64,000 bases of DNA. Source: Candidatus Nomurabacteria bacterium (GTDB lineage: Bacteria; Patescibacteriota; Minisyncoccia; Phycocordibacterales; UBA9973). The stretch lies in the NCBI GenBank assembly GCA_023267435.1, contig JAHFNH010000002.1, positions 88,706 to 152,705 of the forward strand, written 5' to 3'. The position numbers and the translations under genes are program-made. The notes beneath the pieces are model-generated. The model was not told the DNA's origin. It ran no database searches and worked only from the letters and a program-made list of their open reading frames with translations. Below are positions 61-58,677 of this stretch, piece after piece (the first letter of the stretch is position 1; the number at the start of each line of letters is the position of its first letter).

Positions 61-498
61 TTTCCTTCCAATTTGATAAATCAGTTTACCAAAAGTGCCA
101 AAAGTAAATCTGGCATCTAGGGCAATAAATTCAGAATGTTCATTGTATATAACATTTATCAATTCAAAACTCCCATGTATATAAGGAGATTCTTCACTGA
201 AAATATTTTTTGCCCTGATAAACTTATCAGTCGGTTCTACAATTCTTGCATTTAATATTTCATGATTAATAAATGTATGAGTCCCCTGTGTTCCCTTAGT
301 AGGACGTTCAAACCATAAAGACAAAACAGTATTTGTAACTTTGAGAAAGAAGAGGTAATCAATAGCGTCATAATATAGCTTGTTTGGAACTAAACAAAAT
401 TCTATACTAGTTTGCTTTTTTGTAAAATCATCATGAATACTGTACACAAGTAAGGAATATTCAGAGTTTTCTGATAGTTTTAGAATTTTTGTTTCCAT
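58..498 (-). CDS. Hypothetical protein (146 aa)
   Basis: ORF track; preceded on minus strand by TTGACT -35 of bidirectional promoter module at 558..589; terminator at 26..60. Confidence 0.55.
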   Translation of the reverse strand: METKILKLSENSEYSLLVYSIHDDFTKKQTSIEFCLVPNKLYYDAIDYLFFLKVTNTVLSLWFERPTKGTQGTHTFINHEILNARIVEPTDKFIRAKNIFSEESPYIHGSFELINVIYNEHSEFIALDARFTFGTFGKLIYQIGRK

Positions 499-7663: not shown

Positions 7664-9592
7664 ATGAAAATAGTGACGGTAATTCCACTTAAAAAAGGAG
7701 CTTTTAAGGAAAATCTGACCTATTTCACCTCGAAAGATATACCTGATGGAAGTATTGTGACTGTGCCTATGCGCAACAGTCAAATTCTTGGTTTAGCTGT
7801 CTCTTCTGAAGAAGCAACAGACACCAAGTCCGACATAAAAAATCTTAAATTTAATTTAAAAAAAATAACTGAAGTAAAAGAGAATTCTATTTTCTTAAAA
7901 GAATATATCGAGTCCACTCTCGAAATAAGCAAATATTTTAGTTCAAAGAAAAATGATGCGATCGTATCTCTTATACCAGCAATATTACGCGAAGAGTATG
8001 ACAAGATATCTAAATATAAAAATGAAACAGAAAATGTAAAAGAAGTAGAAAATAATTCTGTAAAATTAAAAAAAGAAAAATTACTTTTTCAATTTCCATT
8101 CGCCGACCGTATTAATTTTTATAAAACTTTAATTCGCGGATCCTTCGCTGAAAAAAAATCTGTCTTCATTGTATTACCGACTGAAATAGATATAGAAAGT
8201 TTTTCCAATGCACTTTGCAAAGGCATAGAAAATTTTACTTTCATTATGCACGGAGGATTGAGTTCAAAAAAAGTATTGAAAAATTTCGAAGAAATCATTA
8301 CATCCACACACCCTGTACTCATATTTGGTACTGCACCATTTCTTTCAATTCCCCGCCGAGATTTCGGGACGATTATCGTAGAACACGAAAGTTCTAATGC
8401 TTACAGAATGATCAGCCGGCCATATTTCGACTTACGTTCCTTTGCAGAGCTTTATGCTTCAAAAATAGGCGCAAAACTAATACTAGGAGATTCATTGCTC
8501 CGTTTTGAAACAATAGCTCGAAAAGAAATAGATAATTTTTCAGAAGTTCATCCATTATCTTTTAGAATAAATTTCGAGGGAGAAATAAAGATTCCTAAAA
8601 AAGAAGATAAATTTAAAATACTATCTGATGACAGTATCGAAGAAATAAAAAATAAAATTTCAAAAAAAGAAAACGTATTTATTTTCTCACTTCGAAAAGG
8701 CCTAGCATCTGAAACACTCTGTCAGGATTGTAACAATCCTGTCATGTGTGAAAAATGTTCTGTGCCTGTCGTTCTGTATTTATCTAGAGATAGTAAAAAA
8801 AGAATGTTTGCCTGCAATAGATGCAATACTGAAAAAGACCCTGAAACCAGATGCCTGCACTGTAATAGCTGGAATTTAATGCCACTCGGCATAGGTACAG
8901 ATACAGTCTACGAAGAAGCAAAAAAACTTTTCCCTAAAACTAAAATTTTCCAACTCGACAAAGAATCTGCCAAGACTGCTAAAGGTGCAGAAAAAATCAT
9001 GAAAGAATTTGAAGAAAATTCCGGATCAATCCTCGTCGGGACTGAAATGGCACTTTTATATATGAAAGAACCAGTAGCTCTGTCAGTTATCGCTTCCTTT
9101 GATTCTCTTTGGAGCGTACCGAGTTTTAAAATGAATGAGAAAATTATTCAGCTCATTGTATCGATAATTTCTAAGACAAAAGAGGAACTAATCATCCAAA
9201 CTAAAAATGAACAAGACCCTGCTATTCATGCAATTAAGACTGAAAATGTTTTAGCTTTTGTGCGCGAAGAGCTAGAGGACAGAAAAAACCTTGGCTATCC
9301 GCCATTTAAAAGATTTATCAAAATAACACACATGGGTAGTAAAGAAGAATCAGATCATACTAAAAAAGCATTAGCGGATGTCTTTAAAGACTACGACCCA
9401 GATATTTTCGGTGGTTTTATAAATAAAATAAAAGACAAGTATGTCACCAATATGCTTGTAAAACTAGACCCTAAAAAATGGTCTCTATCTGAACTATCAT
9501 CAAATTCTGAAATAGATGAAAAACTCCTCTCAAAACTCCTCTCTCTCCCGCACGAATTTTCAGTAACCGTTGATCCAGAAAATTTGTTGTAA
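7664..9592 (+). CDS. priA: Primosomal protein N' (PriA)-like with degenerate ATPase motifs
   Basis: PriA-like N-terminus, Cys4 zinc region (CQDC…CEKC…CNRC…CLHC), LVGTEMAL motif. The Walker A position reads IRGSFAEKK (no GxGKT) and the DEEH box reads VEHE. Confidence 0.65.
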   Translation: MKIVTVIPLKKGAFKENLTYFTSKDIPDGSIVTVPMRNSQILGLAVSSEEATDTKSDIKNLKFNLKKITEVKENSIFLKEYIESTLEISKYFSSKKNDAIVSLIPAILREEYDKISKYKNETENVKEVENNSVKLKKEKLLFQFPFADRINFYKTLIRGSFAEKKSVFIVLPTEIDIESFSNALCKGIENFTFIMHGGLSSKKVLKNFEEIITSTHPVLIFGTAPFLSIPRRDFGTIIVEHESSNAYRMISRPYFDLRSFAELYASKIGAKLILGDSLLRFETIARKEIDNFSEVHPLSFRINFEGEIKIPKKEDKFKILSDDSIEEIKNKISKKENVFIFSLRKGLASETLCQDCNNPVMCEKCSVPVVLYLSRDSKKRMFACNRCNTEKDPETRCLHCNSWNLMPLGIGTDTVYEEAKKLFPKTKIFQLDKESAKTAKGAEKIMKEFEENSGSILVGTEMALLYMKEPVALSVIASFDSLWSVPSFKMNEKIIQLIVSIISKTKEELIIQTKNEQDPAIHAIKTENVLAFVREELEDRKNLGYPPFKRFIKITHMGSKEESDHTKKALADVFKDYDPDIFGGFINKIKDKYVTNMLVKLDPKKWSLSELSSNSEIDEKLLSKLLSLPHEFSVTVDPENLL

Positions 9593-17116: not shown

Positions 17117-17153
17117 TTTCGCCTCTTCGGCGAATCAGCCGTTGAGGCTGAAA
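17117..17153. repeat. E2 repeat element (double hairpin), intergenic copy between atpE and atpB
   Basis: tttcgccTCTTCggcgaatcagccGTTGAggctgaaa; stems covary with copies at 18951..18986 and 57815..57852. Confidence 0.85.
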
Positions 17154-17156
17154 TTT

Positions 17157-18029
17157 CTAATGTGCGTGTGCTTCCTTGTGTTCTTCGTGTTCACTGTGAT
17201 CTTGTGCTGCTATTGCGAAATACACAGTGGCGAGCAAACTAAAAATCAAAGCTTGAATCAAGCCAACGAATACTTCCAAAAACAAAAATGGTGCTGGCAC
17301 AAGATATGCCATAATGACACCCATAGAAGCCAATAACACTTCTCCTGCAAAAACATTTCCGAAAAGACGGAAAGATAGTGATGCGATTTTTGCCATTTCA
17401 CCGACTAATTCAAGTATTCCAACAAAGAAATTTATAGGAGCAACAATGAGCACTGTCGGGTCTTTTTTCACCTTTGTGAATATGGAACCGAGCGATATTA
17501 GATTAACATATTTATTGAAACTTTTCCATAATCCAACCATAAATATTCCAAAAATATTTGAAGCGATTACCACCATAATAGCAAGCGCTAATGTGGTATT
17601 TATATCAGCTGTGGCAGATCTGAAAAGAGGTACGAAGGTTGCATTTCCTCCTTCAAAAGAAGTAAAACCTAAAGAACCTAGAAGTGGCATCAATCCAAGC
17701 CAATTACTAATCAGTATGAAAAAGAAAAGTGAAAAAGATAATGGAAAAACTTTTTTAGAAATTTTCCTGTCGCCAGTCACCTGATCGCAAAGAGATAAAG
17801 CGCCTTCCATTATGATTTCAAAAAAATTCTGCAACTTTCCTGGTATTTTTTTTAATTTTAAACGAATAGCAAATGCTAATGCTAAAATTATAAGAAGTGT
17901 TAACCACGAAGTGATGATAGAATTTGTAACAGTAAAATTACCAATATTAAAAATCGGCTCAGCAAAGATAGTCACTTCGTGAGATATTGGAATATTAGTA
18001 TTTATATTTTGCGTATTACTTTGAGTCAT
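17157..18029 (-). CDS. atpB: ATP synthase Fo subunit a
   Basis: Polytopic protein with the conserved LSFRLFGNVFAGE arginine motif. Confidence 0.92.
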   Translation of the reverse strand: MTQSNTQNINTNIPISHEVTIFAEPIFNIGNFTVTNSIITSWLTLLIILALAFAIRLKLKKIPGKLQNFFEIIMEGALSLCDQVTGDRKISKKVFPLSFSLFFFILISNWLGLMPLLGSLGFTSFEGGNATFVPLFRSATADINTTLALAIMVVIASNIFGIFMVGLWKSFNKYVNLISLGSIFTKVKKDPTVLIVAPINFFVGILELVGEMAKIASLSFRLFGNVFAGEVLLASMGVIMAYLVPAPFLFLEVFVGLIQALIFSLLATVYFAIAAQDHSEHEEHKEAHAH

Positions 18030-18031
18030 TA

Positions 18032-18271
18032 TTATAAACTTTTTTGATAATTTTTTACTTCTTTAAATATTCCATAACAAGAAACACCAAAACTTAATCC
18101 GATTAAAATTGGAAAAATAAATTGAGAATTTAGATTAAAAAAATTTTTAACAAATAAAGACAACAAAGCTGGAATCAAAATCCATGCTGTTGTCTTGGCA
18201 TAAAAAACCAATGCTATAACTTTCCAATCTTTCTCTTTTTTATCTAATTCTTTCATTTCACAAAAAACCAA
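18032..18271 (-). CDS. Small membrane protein at head of atp operon (AtpI/AtpZ-like)
   Basis: Two hydrophobic helices; position immediately upstream of atpB. Confidence 0.5.
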   Translation of the reverse strand: MVFCEMKELDKKEKDWKVIALVFYAKTTAWILIPALLSLFVKNFFNLNSQFIFPILIGLSFGVSCYGIFKEVKNYQKSL

Positions 18272-18342
18272 AAATAAATCTGAATAATTAGAATAACTAA
18301 AACAAAAACTATTGTTATAATTTCATTTCTATTATTCATTTG

Positions 18343-18414
18343 TGAGTGTGGATGGAATCGGACCATCGACCTCTGTCTTATCAGGACAGCGTTCTACCAC
18401 TGAACTACACACTC
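18343..18414 (-). tRNA. trnI: tRNA-Ile (anticodon GAU)
   Basis: Hand fold: acceptor GAGTGTG/CACACTC, anticodon loop CTGATAA, T-loop TCCGATT. Confidence 0.85.
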
Positions 18415-18468
18415 ATGTGATCTAAAATTAACTCATAAAATATAACAAATATAACAAAAAAGGGCAAA

Positions 18469-18501
18469 TAAAAAACACTCTATTGCTAGAGTGTTTTTTA
18501 T
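18469..18501. terminator. Bidirectional terminator (aacactctattgctagagtgtt) after the RRM gene
   Basis: Perfect hairpin with A- and T-runs. Confidence 0.75.
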
Positions 18502-18521
18502 TTTTAGAAACTAATTTGAGA

Positions 18522-18857
18522 TTAGTATTCTCGGCGTCCACCGCGGTTTCCACCACCGTATCCACCACCATTGCCTCCTCCGAATCCACCAGTTCTTGGT
18601 GGTCGAGCTTCCATAGGGCGAGCTTCGTTGACTGTTAGTTTGCGTCCTTCGAATTCCTGGCCGTTGAACATTGAGACAGCACTTTGTGCTTCCTCGTCTG
18701 TTGACATTTCAACGAATCCGAAACCTTTTGAGCGACCGGACATTTTGTCCATGATAATCACAGCGGAAGTAACACTTCCTGCTTGTGCGAAAAGCTCTTT
18801 AAGAGCATCTTCTTGTGTACTGTAAGGTAATCCCCCTACGTATAGCTTTGTAGCCAT
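18522..18857 (-). CDS. RNA-binding protein, RRM domain with Gly-rich tail
   Basis: RNP2 LYVGGL and RNP1 KGFGFVEM motifs; GGxGGG C-terminal tail. Confidence 0.88.
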   Translation of the reverse strand: MATKLYVGGLPYSTQEDALKELFAQAGSVTSAVIIMDKMSGRSKGFGFVEMSTDEEAQSAVSMFNGQEFEGRKLTVNEARPMEARPPRTGGFGGGNGGGYGGGNRGGRREY

Positions 18858-18950
18858 TCTTATATTTCTCCCGTTTTTTAAAAATCGGGCAAAAACTATT
18901 TATAATGCGTAGATACTCTTACCGCTCAATTGGCTTAATTGGTGCCTAAC

Positions 18951-18986
18951 AATCGCCTCATCGGCGATCTGCCGTAGAGGCAGATC
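18951..18986. repeat. E2 repeat element, intergenic copy between the RRM gene and prfA
   Basis: aatcgccTCATCggcgatctgccGTAGAggcagatc. Confidence 0.85.
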
Positions 18987-19085
18987 AACACTCACAACTC
19001 AAACAAAAAGCTCTGGAGAAACTACACGCGAAGTATAGCACAAAAATAGAAAAAAGCAATGAAAGTGTATAGGTGTGGATAAATT

Positions 19086-30690: not shown

Positions 30691-31407
30691 ATGCAAAAGA
30701 TTATATTTTTCGATACGGAGACCACAGGCAATACTGAAAAAGATTTCCTGTGCCAAATCGCCTACAAGACAGGCGATGAAAATTTTAACGGACTTTATAA
30801 ACCTCCTGTCAAAATTCCACCCGAAGCTTCCGCAGTACATCACATCACAAATAAAATGCTCGAAGGCAAACCGGCTTTCAGTGAAAGTTCCAATTCTAAA
30901 AAAATAAAAGAACTTTTTGAAGATGAAAATTCTGTCGTTGTCGCACATAATGCGACTTTCGACTTGATGATAATCAAAAAAGAAAATATTATCCCTAAAA
31001 ATTTCATTTGCACATTGAGACTCGCTCGACACCTTGATCCGGAAGGAAAAATAGAAAAATATAATTTGCAATATTTGCGCTACTTGCTCGACCTCGATGT
31101 CGAAGCTACGGCGCACGATGCTCTAGGTGATGTTTTGGTTTTAGAAAAACTATTTGAAAGATTAAAAACTAAAATGACTGAAAGTGAAAACTTAACCGAA
31201 GAGCAAGCTATAAATAAAATGATAGAAATTTCTTCACACCCTTCACTACTTAGACACATTCCATTCGGAAAACATAATGGTAAAACAGTCGAAGAAGTTC
31301 TTCGTGTTGATCCTGGTTACCTAGAATGGCTTTTAAAACAAAAACTGGAGAGTGACCAAATCGACGAAGATTGGATTTATACGTTGAAGTATTATTTAAA
31401 TAAATAA
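30691..31407 (+). CDS. DnaQ-like DEDDh 3'-5' exonuclease with C-terminal DUF3820-like domain
   Basis: Exo I FFDTETTG, Exo II AHNATFD, Exo III HDALGD motifs. Confidence 0.8.
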   Translation: MQKIIFFDTETTGNTEKDFLCQIAYKTGDENFNGLYKPPVKIPPEASAVHHITNKMLEGKPAFSESSNSKKIKELFEDENSVVVAHNATFDLMIIKKENIIPKNFICTLRLARHLDPEGKIEKYNLQYLRYLLDLDVEATAHDALGDVLVLEKLFERLKTKMTESENLTEEQAINKMIEISSHPSLLRHIPFGKHNGKTVEEVLRVDPGYLEWLLKQKLESDQIDEDWIYTLKYYLNK

Positions 31408-57579: not shown

Positions 57580-58677
57580 ATGACATATATGAAAATACTC
57601 GCAATCGAAACATCCTGCGACGAAACAGGAATAAGTATATTGGAAATAAAAGGAGGAATTAAAAATCCTTCTTTTAGAGTTTTGGCGGACAGCTTGAATT
57701 CTCAAATAAAAATACACGCTCCTTTCGGTGGAGTGTACCCCATGCTAGCCAAAAGAGAACATCAAAAAAATCTTCCGATTTTATTTGAAAGAACATTAAA
57801 AAAAGCGGGTAAAAAAATCGCCTCTTCGGCGATCCGCCGTAGAGGCGGAAAACTATTTGATTTAATAGCTGTCACTTCCGGCCCAGGCCTCGAACCTGCA
57901 CTTTGGACAGGAATAATGTTCGCGCAAGAACTAGCTAAAAAATGGAAAGTTCCCATTGTACCAGTTAATCATATGGAAGGTCATATTCTTTCTGTATTTG
58001 GAAAACAAAAAGGTGAATTCTCCATTCCAAAAATAAAATTCCCTATTCTTTCCTTGCTTGTTTCCGGCGGACATACGGAATTGGTGCTTTCAAAAGATTG
58101 GATGAAATACGAAGTCATCGGCGAGACACTGGATGATGCAGCTGGAGAGGCTTTTGATAAAGTTGCCAGAATGCTCGAACTTCCCTATCCTGGCGGACCG
58201 GAAATTTCAAAGCTGGCAGAACAAGGCAGGAAAACTTTTAAAAATCTTCCGGAAGAAATAAAATTACCTCGCCCGATGATGTACAGTAAAAATTTTGATT
58301 TTTCTTTTTCTGGATTAAAAACTGCCGTATTATACCTAACTCAGAAAATTGGAAAATTAAACGACAAAACTAAAAAGCAGATAGCAACAGAATTTGAAAA
58401 TGCCGTAGTTGAAACTTTAATTTACAAAACAAAAAAAGCTATAGAAAAATACAATATCAAAACAATCGTGGTGGCGGGCGGGGTATCTTCTAATAAACAT
58501 TTAAGAAAAGAAATAAAAAAAATGGTAGGGTTGAAACAAAAAATTCTATTTCCTGGCAAAAAACTTTCTACCGATAATTCTGTGATGATAGGCATAACAG
58601 GATATTTCAGATTTATAAAAAAAGGAAAAAAAATCGGCGCCTCAAAAATAAAAGCTGAAGGATATATGCACCTTTAA
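57580..58677 (+). CDS. tsaD: tRNA N6-adenosine threonylcarbamoyltransferase TsaD (Kae1/Gcp) carrying an in-frame E2-element insertion
   Basis: ILAIETSCDETGISI start and HMEGH metal motif. The 12-aa insert IASSAIRRRGGK sits just before the conserved IAVTSGPG and is encoded by the E2 repeat. Confidence 0.88.
   Translation: MTYMKILAIETSCDETGISILEIKGGIKNPSFRVLADSLNSQIKIHAPFGGVYPMLAKREHQKNLPILFERTLKKAGKKIASSAIRRRGGKLFDLIAVTSGPGLEPALWTGIMFAQELAKKWKVPIVPVNHMEGHILSVFGKQKGEFSIPKIKFPILSLLVSGGHTELVLSKDWMKYEVIGETLDDAAGEAFDKVARMLELPYPGGPEISKLAEQGRKTFKNLPEEIKLPRPMMYSKNFDFSFSGLKTAVLYLTQKIGKLNDKTKKQIATEFENAVVETLIYKTKKAIEKYNIKTIVVAGGVSSNKHLRKEIKKMVGLKQKILFPGKKLSTDNSVMIGITGYFRFIKKGKKIGASKIKAEGYMHL
57815..57852. 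repeat. E2 repeat element, in-frame copy inside tsaD
   Basis: aaatcgccTCTTCggcgatccgccGTAGAggcggaaaa. Confidence 0.85.

Follow-up and report, generated by a model that had tools for sequence, protein, structure and literature searches.

What kind of sequence places the same short, GC-rich double hairpin (DH) in two spacers and, in frame, in a protein-coding gene of one 64-kb window, by which we mean the whole stretch of DNA analysed here, and does it belong to a mobile element, to the transcripts that contain it, or to the host?

Three double hairpins in the window

An earlier note on this DNA had described three copies of a folded repeat, two of them intergenic and one within tsaD. We found exactly three DH copies of 33-34 nt in the window, approximately at the coordinates given there and in the same gene contexts (atpB/atpE, prfA/RRM and tsaD), and the stem differences quoted between the copies were exact. 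Copy 1, in the 34-nt form (17118..17151), lies in the atpB-atpE spacer, which is delimited by the stop of atpB (17157) and the start of atpE (17043), both genes being on the minus strand, and consists of hairpin 1, ttcgcc-TCTTC-ggcgaa (17118-17134), and hairpin 2, tcagcc-GTTGA-ggctga (17135-17151). Copy 2 (18952..18986, with a 33-nt core at 18952-18984) is found in a conserved leader within the spacer between the prfA stop (19086) and the start of a gene for an RRM protein (18857), again both on the minus strand. Its hairpin 1, atcgcc-TCATC-ggcgat (18952-18968), has bases in common with hairpin 2, (t)ctgcc-GTAGA-ggcag(a) (18966-18986), the second stem being extendable from 18984 to 18986. Copy 3 (57817..57849; 33 nt, that is, 11 codons) is in frame in tsaD (57580-58677, plus strand), an intact gene of 365 aa. 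Its stems and loops are atcgcc-TCTTC-ggcgat and (t)ccgcc-GTAGA-ggcgg(a), and it forms codons 80-90 with the peptide IASSAIRRRGG (I80 to G90), flanked by A-runs read as Lys codons.

A covariance model built only from copies of other organisms recovered exactly three sites in the window with E values of 3e-11 to 8e-7 (copy 1, 17117-17152, both strands, 3e-11 and 1e-10; copy 2, 1.8e-8; copy 3, 4e-9), the next best match having an E value of 0.7. In dinucleotide shuffles of the window, the expected number of matches to the DH pattern is 0.00. Both results sustain the earlier claim that the repeat is not due to chance. Besides the three copies, a hairpin scan of this 35%-GC sequence detected no further adjacent pair of GC-rich hairpins. 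Despite its similar stem, the hairpin at 30757-30777 was judged unrelated, being located in a coding region and lacking the DH motif.

A covarying family across Patescibacteria

The family extends beyond the three loci of the window, as a pattern scan yielded 47 Patescibacteria loci with DH, at 1-3 strict-pattern copies per genome in a census that is incomplete genome by genome. Its layout is three variable base pairs plus GCC, the loop TCNNC and the complementary GGC plus 3 bp, followed by a second unit of three variable base pairs plus GCC, the loop GNNGA and GGC plus 3 bp. In 33 distinct copies taken from other genomes, pairing in the double hairpin reached 99.2%, and 60 cells were changed on both sides compared with 11.9 ± 3.7 in shuffles (0/500). 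The covariation score was 0.431; shuffles scored 0.091 and slid controls no more than 0.069. In a second set of DHs, ascertained via protein and not via the DNA pattern, pairing was 95-97% and seven pairs changed on both sides. The covariation reported from three copies therefore persisted when it was re-tested with more of them, and collapsed in the slid controls. The further proposal that the fold and not the linear sequence is selected stands in part: folding and covariation hold, but sequence is conserved as such in the loops (TCNNC, GNNGA) and in the inner GCC/GGC pairs, and core and loops are strongly conserved across Patescibacteria classes. Coding and non-coding copies use the same nucleotides. 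Single-sequence folding favours one long imperfect hairpin over two hairpins; this single long hairpin, or a loop-loop pairing, was considered as the structure and rejected because, although preferred for single sequences, it lacks covariation.

Gain, loss and in-frame copies

The orthologous sites of all three window copies are empty or otherwise filled in the nearest relatives, with synteny kept, and in the closest of these relatives 113 kb of syntenic sequence gave no DH match. The atpB-atpE spacer measures 48-56 nt in relatives, without DH, versus 113 nt in the window. The site of copy 2 is empty in one related locus (L059) and holds a different palindrome in another (L060), and TsaD homologues at 75-77% identity are devoid of the insert of copy 3. 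On the other hand, the DH also occupies the loop of copy 3 in the tsaD genes of two other loci (L001 and L038), being identical at 32 of 33 nt inside genes that are 67-70% identical at the DNA level. These observations support the conclusion that the three window copies behave as a mobile or recently gained element, in agreement with the mobility proposed in the earlier note. Other palindromes were also found at the same TsaD loop.

About a third of the Patescibacteria copies (18/52) lie within open reading frames, and the copies read in frame in housekeeping genes number at least 18. In-frame hosts are TsaD (three times), TrmD, Dus, RNase R, a MurD-like protein, SMC, a LysA-like protein, RpoD and ArgRS (twice), and all of these keep their full Pfam domains. 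The coding copies use three reading frames, in at least 12 different housekeeping genes, and all have the same polarity, the sense strand being the A-rich one. The use of three frames, together with the existence of intergenic copies, excludes selection at the level of the peptide. Solo copies sit in A-runs.

A GIY-YIG cassette in tRNA genes

The partner gene of the DH, a small GIY-YIG nuclease with DH-bounded cassettes, is invisible from the window alone, as the 64 kb contain no GIY-YIG gene. Such a gene was found beside the DH in 12 of the 47 pattern-found loci. Conversely, a DH was located 6-49 nt upstream of the GIY-YIG start codon in 55 of 72 loci that were sampled independently via the protein, most of the remaining 17 having degenerate or nested versions (nested in L071 and L117), and at least ten loci have a DH on both sides of the gene. 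The nuclease is 82-88 aa long and matches Pfam GIY-YIG (E 1e-17) with no other domain. Among annotated proteins and solved structures, its best relatives belong to UPF0213 (YazA, 39% identity; PDB 1zg2, 1ywl), followed by SLX1, and other plasmid-borne GIY-YIG genes gave no match to it at E <= 1e-3.

The cassette is bounded by DH copies in direct orientation and lies within tRNA genes, in their D-arm, where it follows GGTA, GTA or GCAT. An intact tRNA of the same type adjoins it or is part of it, and the 5' part of the adjacent tRNA matches the upstream flank of the cassette DH. DH-to-DH deletion in silico restores tRNA-Gln (L120, L129) and tRNA-Pro (L119). A model trained only on cassette DHs recovers exactly the three solo copies of the window. 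The DH subtype goes with the tRNA, tRNA-Ser cassettes having TGC/TCC stems and those of tRNA-Gln and tRNA-Pro having GTC/CCC stems; none of the sampled cassette DHs shows an outer stem of the types present in the window (ATC/TCC, ATC/TCT and TTC/TCA). A group I intron was rejected as an explanation of the interrupted tRNAs, since the downstream tRNA is complete here; tRNA group I introns are located at position 35/36 and measure 184-894 nt (PMC13011429).

Our best explanation, to which we assign a probability of about 0.6, is that a GIY-YIG mobile element carries this hairpin repeat at its ends, that the DHs of the window are solo copies of that repeat, and that the DH acts as DNA. The full-length form of the family would be a small DH-bounded cassette that encodes the GIY-YIG nuclease within a tRNA D-arm. 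On a single-stranded DNA strand, the two hairpins would constitute the recognition structure for this nuclease, which would nick beside the DH. Host repair or template switching might then copy or leave the DH at new sites, with A-runs as the probable preference of the window subtype. Alternatively, solo DHs could derive from recombination between the two DHs of a cassette. They would persist wherever they are tolerated, that is, in leaders or spacers, or in the surface loops of proteins as in-frame inserts of 11 codons. On this view the window copies would be passengers, through which TsaD gains 11 residues and two transcribed spacers acquire a GC-rich structure.

Several observations count against this explanation. 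The strict-pattern copy number per genome is low, solo copies sit in A-runs versus the GGTA, GTA and GCAT sites of the cassette DHs, and the cassette DHs lack the window stem types. In addition, the window lacks a GIY-YIG gene, single sequences are predicted to fold as one hairpin, GIY-YIG enzymes hydrolyse DNA but cannot paste it unaided, and the nuclease is closest to UPF0213 and not to the demonstrated Ssn enzymes discussed below.

A bolder version, which we regard as tentative and would not favour at even odds, is that the DH and the 82-88-aa GIY-YIG protein make up a mobile element of a new kind, guided by hairpins, hydrolytic (non-HUH) and confined to Patescibacteria. In it, a strand-symmetric double hairpin in single-stranded DNA would be recognised by a minimal nuclease, DH-bounded cassettes would be inserted into tRNA D-arms with a replacement tRNA supplied, and solo 11-codon hairpins would be seeded into essential genes across the classes of the phylum. 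If this were true, and considering the other palindromes at the TsaD loop, in-frame hairpin insertion might be a general source of protein-loop variation in these reduced genomes.

The strongest competitor of the GIY-YIG element, although an unlikely one in our judgement, is that the DH is a selfish hairpin of the REP or MITE kind, autonomous and with tRNA D-arms as targets, captured once at the edge of a cassette and inherited from then on with no functional tie to the nuclease. The association of DH subtypes with the tRNA type is what vertical co-inheritance would predict, no nuclease gene lies near the window copies, and in one locus (L022) a tRNA 5' fragment, a DH and an intact tRNA follow one another with no GIY-YIG gene between them. 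However, the stems of cassette DHs stay intact, with compensatory changes, beside nucleases that are 46-50% identical to one another, which indicates that the DH is maintained within cassettes. The DH is also present at both cassette ends, where excision between them restores the target tRNA, and at least 76% of the GIY-YIG family genes carry it at a fixed distance from the start codon.

Action as DNA or as RNA

The reverse complement of the DH has the same motif layout, so that the model scores both strands, and pairs of the G-U type occupy just 3 of 396 pairing cells among the 33 distinct copies. The near-absence of G-U/G-T pairs together with the presence of the same motif on both strands points to the DH acting as DNA rather than RNA. 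The opposite view, namely that the DH works as a structured module at the RNA level, by stabilising, processing or regulating the transcripts that contain it (for instance the atp operon spacer and the leaders of the RRM and GIY-YIG genes), seems improbable to us. It would be consistent with the location of all three window copies in transcribed regions, with the fact that the GIY-YIG gene has the DH in its 5' leader, hairpin 2 overlapping a purine-rich stretch immediately ahead of the start codon, and with the stability of the hairpins (z-scores of -4.7 to -5.6). However, a typical RNA family would not be so poor in G-U pairs, the motif would not be expected on both strands, and copies would not be expected in three reading frames inside a dozen or more housekeeping genes. 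Relative to their host genes, moreover, the window copies are transcribed from different strands. Rfam 15 at the gathering threshold returned nothing but tRNAs in the window and 14 DH loci, and there is no U-run for termination. An intrinsic terminator was accordingly rejected, as a T-run is missing after either hairpin, on either strand, at all three window sites; the terminator-like hairpins identified in the window by the hairpin scan have the form A-run/stem/T-run. Hairpin 1 was also considered as an anticodon arm (CAU/CUU) and discarded, as its loop has 5 nt and position 37 would be a pyrimidine.

Implications

In the light of these results, the DH appears as a phylum-wide selfish element in genomes that are usually called streamlined. 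It explains odd 11-residue inserts (IASSAIRRRGG and its frame variants) in essential proteins, which annotators could take for functional motifs, and the cassettes account for tRNA 5' fragments and for split or pseudo-tRNAs beside tRNA genes in Patescibacteria genomes. The linkage of a compact, uncharacterised UPF0213-like GIY-YIG clade to a defined DNA structure provides a directly testable candidate substrate and possibly a new pairing of hairpin and nuclease, such as those currently looked for as tools for single-stranded DNA. The presence of a near-identical 33-mer in different classes would be either a marker of horizontal transfer or the sign of a very tight sequence constraint. Presence or absence among close relatives makes DH copies useful as strain markers.

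Relation to known elements

The earlier note knew of no equivalent in CPR-like genomes, and the searchable literature contained no prior description of the element for Patescibacteria; the GIY-YIG linkage and the tRNA D-arm cassettes of the DH are new here. Its analogies with Rickettsia palindromic elements (RPE), for the in-frame coding copies, and with REP elements, for the nuclease-linked hairpin, proved apt. REP elements and REPINs are reportedly associated with RAYT transposases; REP hairpins, which are extragenic and occur in many copies or as inverted pairs, are recognised as DNA hairpins, and RAYT is a Y1 HUH transposase of the IS200/IS605 type. Both REP and DH are short palindromic hairpins with compensatory changes, linked to one nuclease-type gene that they flank, but the partner of the DH is a GIY-YIG hydrolase and not a Y1 HUH transposase, and the DH is not strictly extragenic, is low in copy number and, in the window, lacks the conserved 5' GTAG. 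Only the tRNA-D-loop subtype of DH follows GGTAG, and that GGTAG is tRNA sequence. With IS200/IS605 elements the DH shares end hairpins and insertion 3' of a short specific sequence (GGTA^G, GTA^G, GCAT^A or A-runs for the DH) with no obvious target duplication; these elements differ by their Y1 covalent intermediate, as opposed to a hydrolytic GIY-YIG enzyme, and the ends of the DH cassette are direct copies of one motif. A Y1 transposase was rejected as the DH partner, as the single Y1 transposase-like ORF among approximately 140 loci (in L022) is not adjacent to the DH, a tRNA lying between the two.

RPEs are said to be of approximately 100-150 bp, restricted to Rickettsia and with no identified partner enzyme. 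Like the DH, they are palindromic selfish DNA of a reduced, AT-rich genome, inserted into its housekeeping genes without loss of frame and translated into additional loop residues; the DH differs by its 33-34 nt, its occurrence in Patescibacteria and its link to a GIY-YIG cassette. Double-hairpin elements (DHE) of Allomyces mitochondria and GC clusters of yeast mitochondria have reportedly been described as well. DHEs measure 26-79 nt and occupy intergenic regions, introns and rRNA variable regions. They resemble the DH in form only (two GC-rich stem-loops in an AT-rich genome, signs of mobility and nested or 'twin' insertions) and differ by being mitochondrial and by having no defined nuclease partner. 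The genomes that harbour DHEs also hold GIY-YIG mobile ORFs.

Phage T4 SegB (PMC2330249) is a free-standing GIY-YIG homing endonuclease in a tRNA gene cluster. It resembles the DH cassette as a small GIY-YIG gene among or in tRNA genes that spreads with flanking tRNA sequence; the Seg proteins differ by their DNA-binding domains, the lack of a known hairpin repeat and their phage-borne nature. Our scan of viral contigs detected no DH, its single match being GC-rich and due to chance.

The closest system is that of the single-domain GIY-YIG Ssn nucleases, which bind hairpin repeats as ssDNA and cut beside them in a sequence-specific manner, leaving dsDNA and RNA uncut (PMC11893778, Chenal et al. 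2025); the report makes no mention of Patescibacteria. In both systems (Ssn/SRM, or NTS/SRM, and DH), a single-domain GIY-YIG gene of around 90 aa is flanked by a short GC-rich hairpin repeat, solo repeats are dispersed, and the repeat-gene-repeat layout resembles an insertion sequence. However, the SRM has one hairpin, with an orientation and with GTC at its 5' flank, whereas the DH has two and is strand-symmetric. The published SRM motif, HGTCWYN(0-2)YYVSBRHN(0-5)WNVSBRGN(0-2)RNCYNB, matched none of 68 DH-like sites and no window site on either strand. SRM copies amount to tens to hundreds per genome, versus a few for the DH, and the in-gene share of the DH, about a third, compares with 2% for the NTS (PMC11893778). 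Cassettes tied to tRNA D-arms and a nuclease nearest to UPF0213 are features of the DH. Overall, the DH and its nuclease are similar to the Ssn/SRM and REP/RAYT pairs but do not fit the definition of either.

This comparison suggests another reading, in which the DHs are not selfish but host-serving sites of a domesticated nuclease, for instance for marking or restricting incoming ssDNA in transformation. Patescibacteria are thought to depend on DNA uptake, and the strong conservation of core and loops across classes would suit such a function. A precedent has been proposed for Neisseria NTS/SsnA (PMC11893778). Nevertheless, 1-3 strict copies are far too few for a genome-marking signal, copies are absent in close relatives and placed inside essential genes, and cassettes disrupt tRNA genes, which looks parasitic; we consider this reading slightly less probable still than an RNA function.

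Finally, that the DH matches are due to chance, to assembly artefacts or to a protein-level motif (IASSAIRRRGG) is already refuted, as GC-rich genomes do yield chance pattern matches but these lack outer pairing, none is expected in shuffles of the window, the copies are also intergenic and in three frames, and copy 1 is identical in independent assemblies of the same strain. Pattern matches outside Patescibacteria are chance: eight GC-rich non-CPR matches without outer stem pairing were used as a negative control, and some GC-rich chance matches stem from a PAS-domain-like coding motif (..LYGYTAEEA..).

The double-hairpin element and its family

Re-reading of the window sequence bore out the positions of the three copies reported in the earlier note, each of which consists of two adjoining hairpins with stems of 6 bp and loops of 5 nt (the double hairpin, DH). 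Copy 1 (17118-17151; ttcgcc TCTTC ggcgaa / tcagcc GTTGA ggctga) lies in the spacer from the atpB stop to the atpE start and copy 2 (18952-18984(86); atcgcc TCATC ggcgat / ctgcc GTAGA ggcag) in that from the prfA stop to the RRM-protein gene start, both gene pairs being on the minus strand, while copy 3 (57817-57849; atcgcc TCTTC ggcgat / ccgcc GTAGA ggcgg) makes up codons 80-90 (IASSAIRRRGG) of an intact tsaD. The window has a G+C content of 35%; its shuffles give an expected motif count of 0.00, and a scan of it for GC-rich hairpins found no adjacent hairpin pair beyond these three.

One genome per species was scanned with the pattern GCCTCWTCGGCG-N4-6-GCCGTWGAGGC, which fixes the loops and the inner GCC/GGC pairs and leaves the three outer bp of each stem free, so that the scan underestimates both the diversity of DH and its copy number. 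The 55 loci obtained comprise 47 from Patescibacteria, all AT-rich contigs (Nomura-, Pacei-, Sacchari-, Kuenen-, Colwell- and Magasanik-bacteria; a few come from co-assemblies as bins with other labels, and MAG labels may be wrong), and eight from GC-rich genomes of other phyla. The outer stem pairs of the Patescibacteria copies are nearly always fully complementary despite their differing sequence (ATC/GAT, TCC/GGA, CCC/GGG, TGC/GCA, CTC/GAG, GTC/GAC, AGC/GCT and others) and those of the eight GC-rich matches are mismatched. The latter (L014, L021 and others), all within long ORFs, are chance matches and serve as a natural negative control; some encode a PAS-like ..LYGYTAEEA.. motif, and the conserved coding motif ..RLYGYTAEEA.. 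of GC-rich bacteria yields the DH pattern by chance.

The covariation claimed from three copies holds on 33 distinct ones. In a register-normalised alignment, which writes the base common to both stems of the 33-nt form twice, 99.2% of the cells are paired, both sides have changed in 60 cells against 11.9 +/- 3.7 in shuffles (0/500), and the covariation score is 0.431, compared with 0.091 in shuffles and at most 0.069 with slid partners. Single-sequence folding favours one long hairpin over the double hairpin; this fold was rejected, as covariation for it is absent altogether.

Three lines of evidence point to DH acting as DNA: (i) G-U-type pairs are scarce (3/396 cells), (ii) the loop classes TCNNC and GNNGA are mutual reverse complements, hence the same layout on both strands, and a covariance model scores every window copy on both, and (iii) spacer copies and copies read in three different frames retain identical nucleotides. 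Polarity remains through stems and flanks: the sense strand is the A-rich strand in all coding copies, and A-runs flank the common 33-nt subtype on that strand.

Presence and absence at orthologous sites

The mobility proposed in the earlier note agrees with the orthologous sites: the nearest relatives reached (AtpB identity 87-88% and 81%, L059-L062; TsaD identity 76-77%, L147 and L148) retain the order L31-prfA-RRM-x-x-atpB-atpE and the tsaD neighbourhood, yet copies 1, 2 and 3 are all absent from them, and the covariance model found no match in 113 kb of their loci. Their atpB/atpE spacer measures 48-56 nt, against 113 nt in the window, their prfA/RRM leader can be aligned on both flanks of copy 2, whose site is empty in L059, and their TsaD loop is free of the copy 3 insert. 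Two tsaD genes from other genomes (L001 and L038), only 67-70% identical to that of the window at the DNA level, carry a DH at the same loop with 32/33 bases identical. Either a gain that was recent and independent or a very tight constraint on the sequence explains this; in both cases, DH is something other than ordinary spacer sequence passed on by descent.

At the exact point of copy 2 (window 18952-18986), the relative L060 bears a different palindromic insert (tttgtaccccgtcgctcgcgagtgacagggttt, ~8560-8600). Upstream of the RRM-protein gene (18522-18857), its leader (18858-19050, minus strand) is strikingly conserved among relatives except at the DH insertion point and has a hairpin (cccgattttt..aaaacggg) directly ahead of the start codon. 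This leader may act as a cis-regulatory RNA; it had no match in Rfam at the gathering threshold.

Copies in frame within genes

Intact housekeeping genes contain at least 18 in-frame DH copies; among the hosts are TsaD (three copies), ArgRS (two within a single gene), TrmD, Dus, RNase R, a MurD-like ligase, SMC and a LysA-like decarboxylase. Further copies occupy extreme N-terminal or upstream parts of PurA, UvrC, RpoD and Ddl-like ORFs. Twelve coding copies use the frame I-A-S-[S/T]-A-I-R-R-R-G-G, and the 33-nt, 11-codon form accounts for 16/18 coding copies versus 7/17 non-coding solo copies (Fisher p = 0.0045).

The TsaD loop (window 57805-57860, residues ~76-92) is a hot spot, with homologues bearing 0-40 extra residues exactly there. 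Three unrelated inserts in this loop, read as DNA (L144 1501-2679, L145 844-2061, L146 847-2031), are near-perfect palindromes with stems of 13, about 20 and 18 bp, respectively, all in frame. These genomes seem to harbour several families of hairpin inserts that are translated.

A GIY-YIG nuclease gene and cassettes in tRNA genes

Twelve of the 47 loci have, directly downstream of the DH, an ORF of 82-88 aa (MYYFYVL..GFT.NLKRRI.EH..) made up of one GIY-YIG domain only (Pfam E 1e-17). The linkage was tested in reverse on 80 metagenome loci fetched via the GIY-YIG protein, with no selection for stem sequence. An adjoining double hairpin, ending 6-49 nt ahead of the start codon, was present in 55 of the 72 loci with enough upstream sequence, and most of the remainder had degenerate, tetraloop or nested double hairpins. 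The hairpins of this protein-found set are 95-97% paired, seven pairs vary on both sides, and there is no pairing between the central positions of the loops.

A same-strand tRNA gene (Ser, Gln, Pro, Gly, Ile or Cys) starts at most 150 nt past the stop codon in about 50 of the 72, and the sequence immediately 5' of the cassette DH is the 5' part of the same kind of tRNA, interrupted after GCAT (tRNA-Ser, position 13/14) or GGTA/GTA (D-loop or position 9/10); past the DH, the tRNA sequence often continues for a few bases. Some loci have a second, downstream DH in direct orientation, and in silico deletion from the first to the second recreated an ARAGORN-accepted tRNA in L120, L129 and L119 (Gln-CTG twice, Pro-CGG once). 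Thus, the cassettes are insertions into tRNA genes that have DHs as boundaries and lie next to an intact tRNA of matching type. A covariance model trained on cassette-linked DHs alone retrieved exactly copies 1-3 from the window (E 3e-11 to 8e-7; next match E = 0.7), which places these solo copies within the cassette family. The window contains no GIY-YIG gene, and its stem subtypes occur on none of the sampled cassettes.

Variant arrangements were also seen. Double hairpins with 4-nt loops (e.g. tccgccCAAGgcgga-ccagccTCGGgctgg) hold the same position upstream of more distant GIY-YIG genes (L030 ~250-290, minus strand; L113/L114, L116, L127/L132, L142). Three tandem GIY-YIG genes of the cassette family surround one tRNA-Ser in L018 (2810-3861). 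In L036 (5228-5380), an intact tRNA-Gln is followed by a tRNA-like remnant with a DH in its D-loop and, within its body, two more small hairpins (ccccgcTAATTATAgcgggg and cccgcTACGCATAgcggg); when the second of these was taken out by eye, a T-arm was restored. L022 (3975-4110) has a tRNA 5' fragment (gtcagggtag), a DH, 16 nt and an intact tRNA, the nuclease gene being absent between them.

Possible mechanism and related systems

DH is a conserved DNA double hairpin, gained and lost between relatives, present in frame in genes and fixed in place at the ends of GIY-YIG cassettes in tRNA D-arms. The most likely mechanism is that the nuclease reads the two hairpins in single-stranded DNA, such as arises at replication forks or in DNA uptake, and nicks it at the junction, and that host repair or template switching would then spread DH or the whole cassette. 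A solo copy could be left by recombination between the two DHs of a cassette, and the survivors would be copies in tolerant places, namely spacers and lysine-rich surface loops, preferably in the 11-codon form. We assign a probability of about 0.6 to this overall reading of a DH and GIY-YIG cassette family with nuclease-driven spread. Family membership and the linkage to the GIY-YIG gene are near certain; the enzymology is the uncertain part.

Our literature searches found no description of DH or of GIY-YIG/tRNA cassettes in Patescibacteria, and recent work on tRNA introns in these bacteria deals with anticodon-loop group I introns (PMC13011429). The nearest described system is Ssn/SRM, in which single-domain GIY-YIG proteins of ~94 aa (cd10448) bind the single-stranded DNA of hairpin repeats and cleave next to it; such repeats flank the nuclease gene and are dispersed in the genome (PMC11893778). 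The DH system is similar in logic but falls outside the Ssn/SRM definitions: no DH matches the SRM motif, the repeat is a strand-symmetric double hairpin of low copy number with many copies inside genes, the cassettes are tied to tRNAs, and the closest annotated or solved relatives of the nuclease are UPF0213 proteins (B. subtilis YazA, PDB 1zg2/1ywl), then SLX1. REP/RAYT, which uses a Y1 transposase, is analogous, but the DH partner is not such an enzyme. Among all loci, a single IS200/IS605-like Y1 transposase ORF was seen (L022 4231-4731, 120 nt past the tRNA), and an ORF in a relative's locus near the atp operon (L061 13734-14408) has a faint Y1_Tnp Pfam match. RPE shares the in-frame habit but differs in size and has no known partner enzyme. 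Mitochondrial double-hairpin elements, for which 'twin' insertions have been described, share the form of DH; nested DHs with extra hairpin sequence between or inside the two hairpins, seen 40-110 nt upstream of the GIY-YIG start in L071 and L117, are reminiscent of these.
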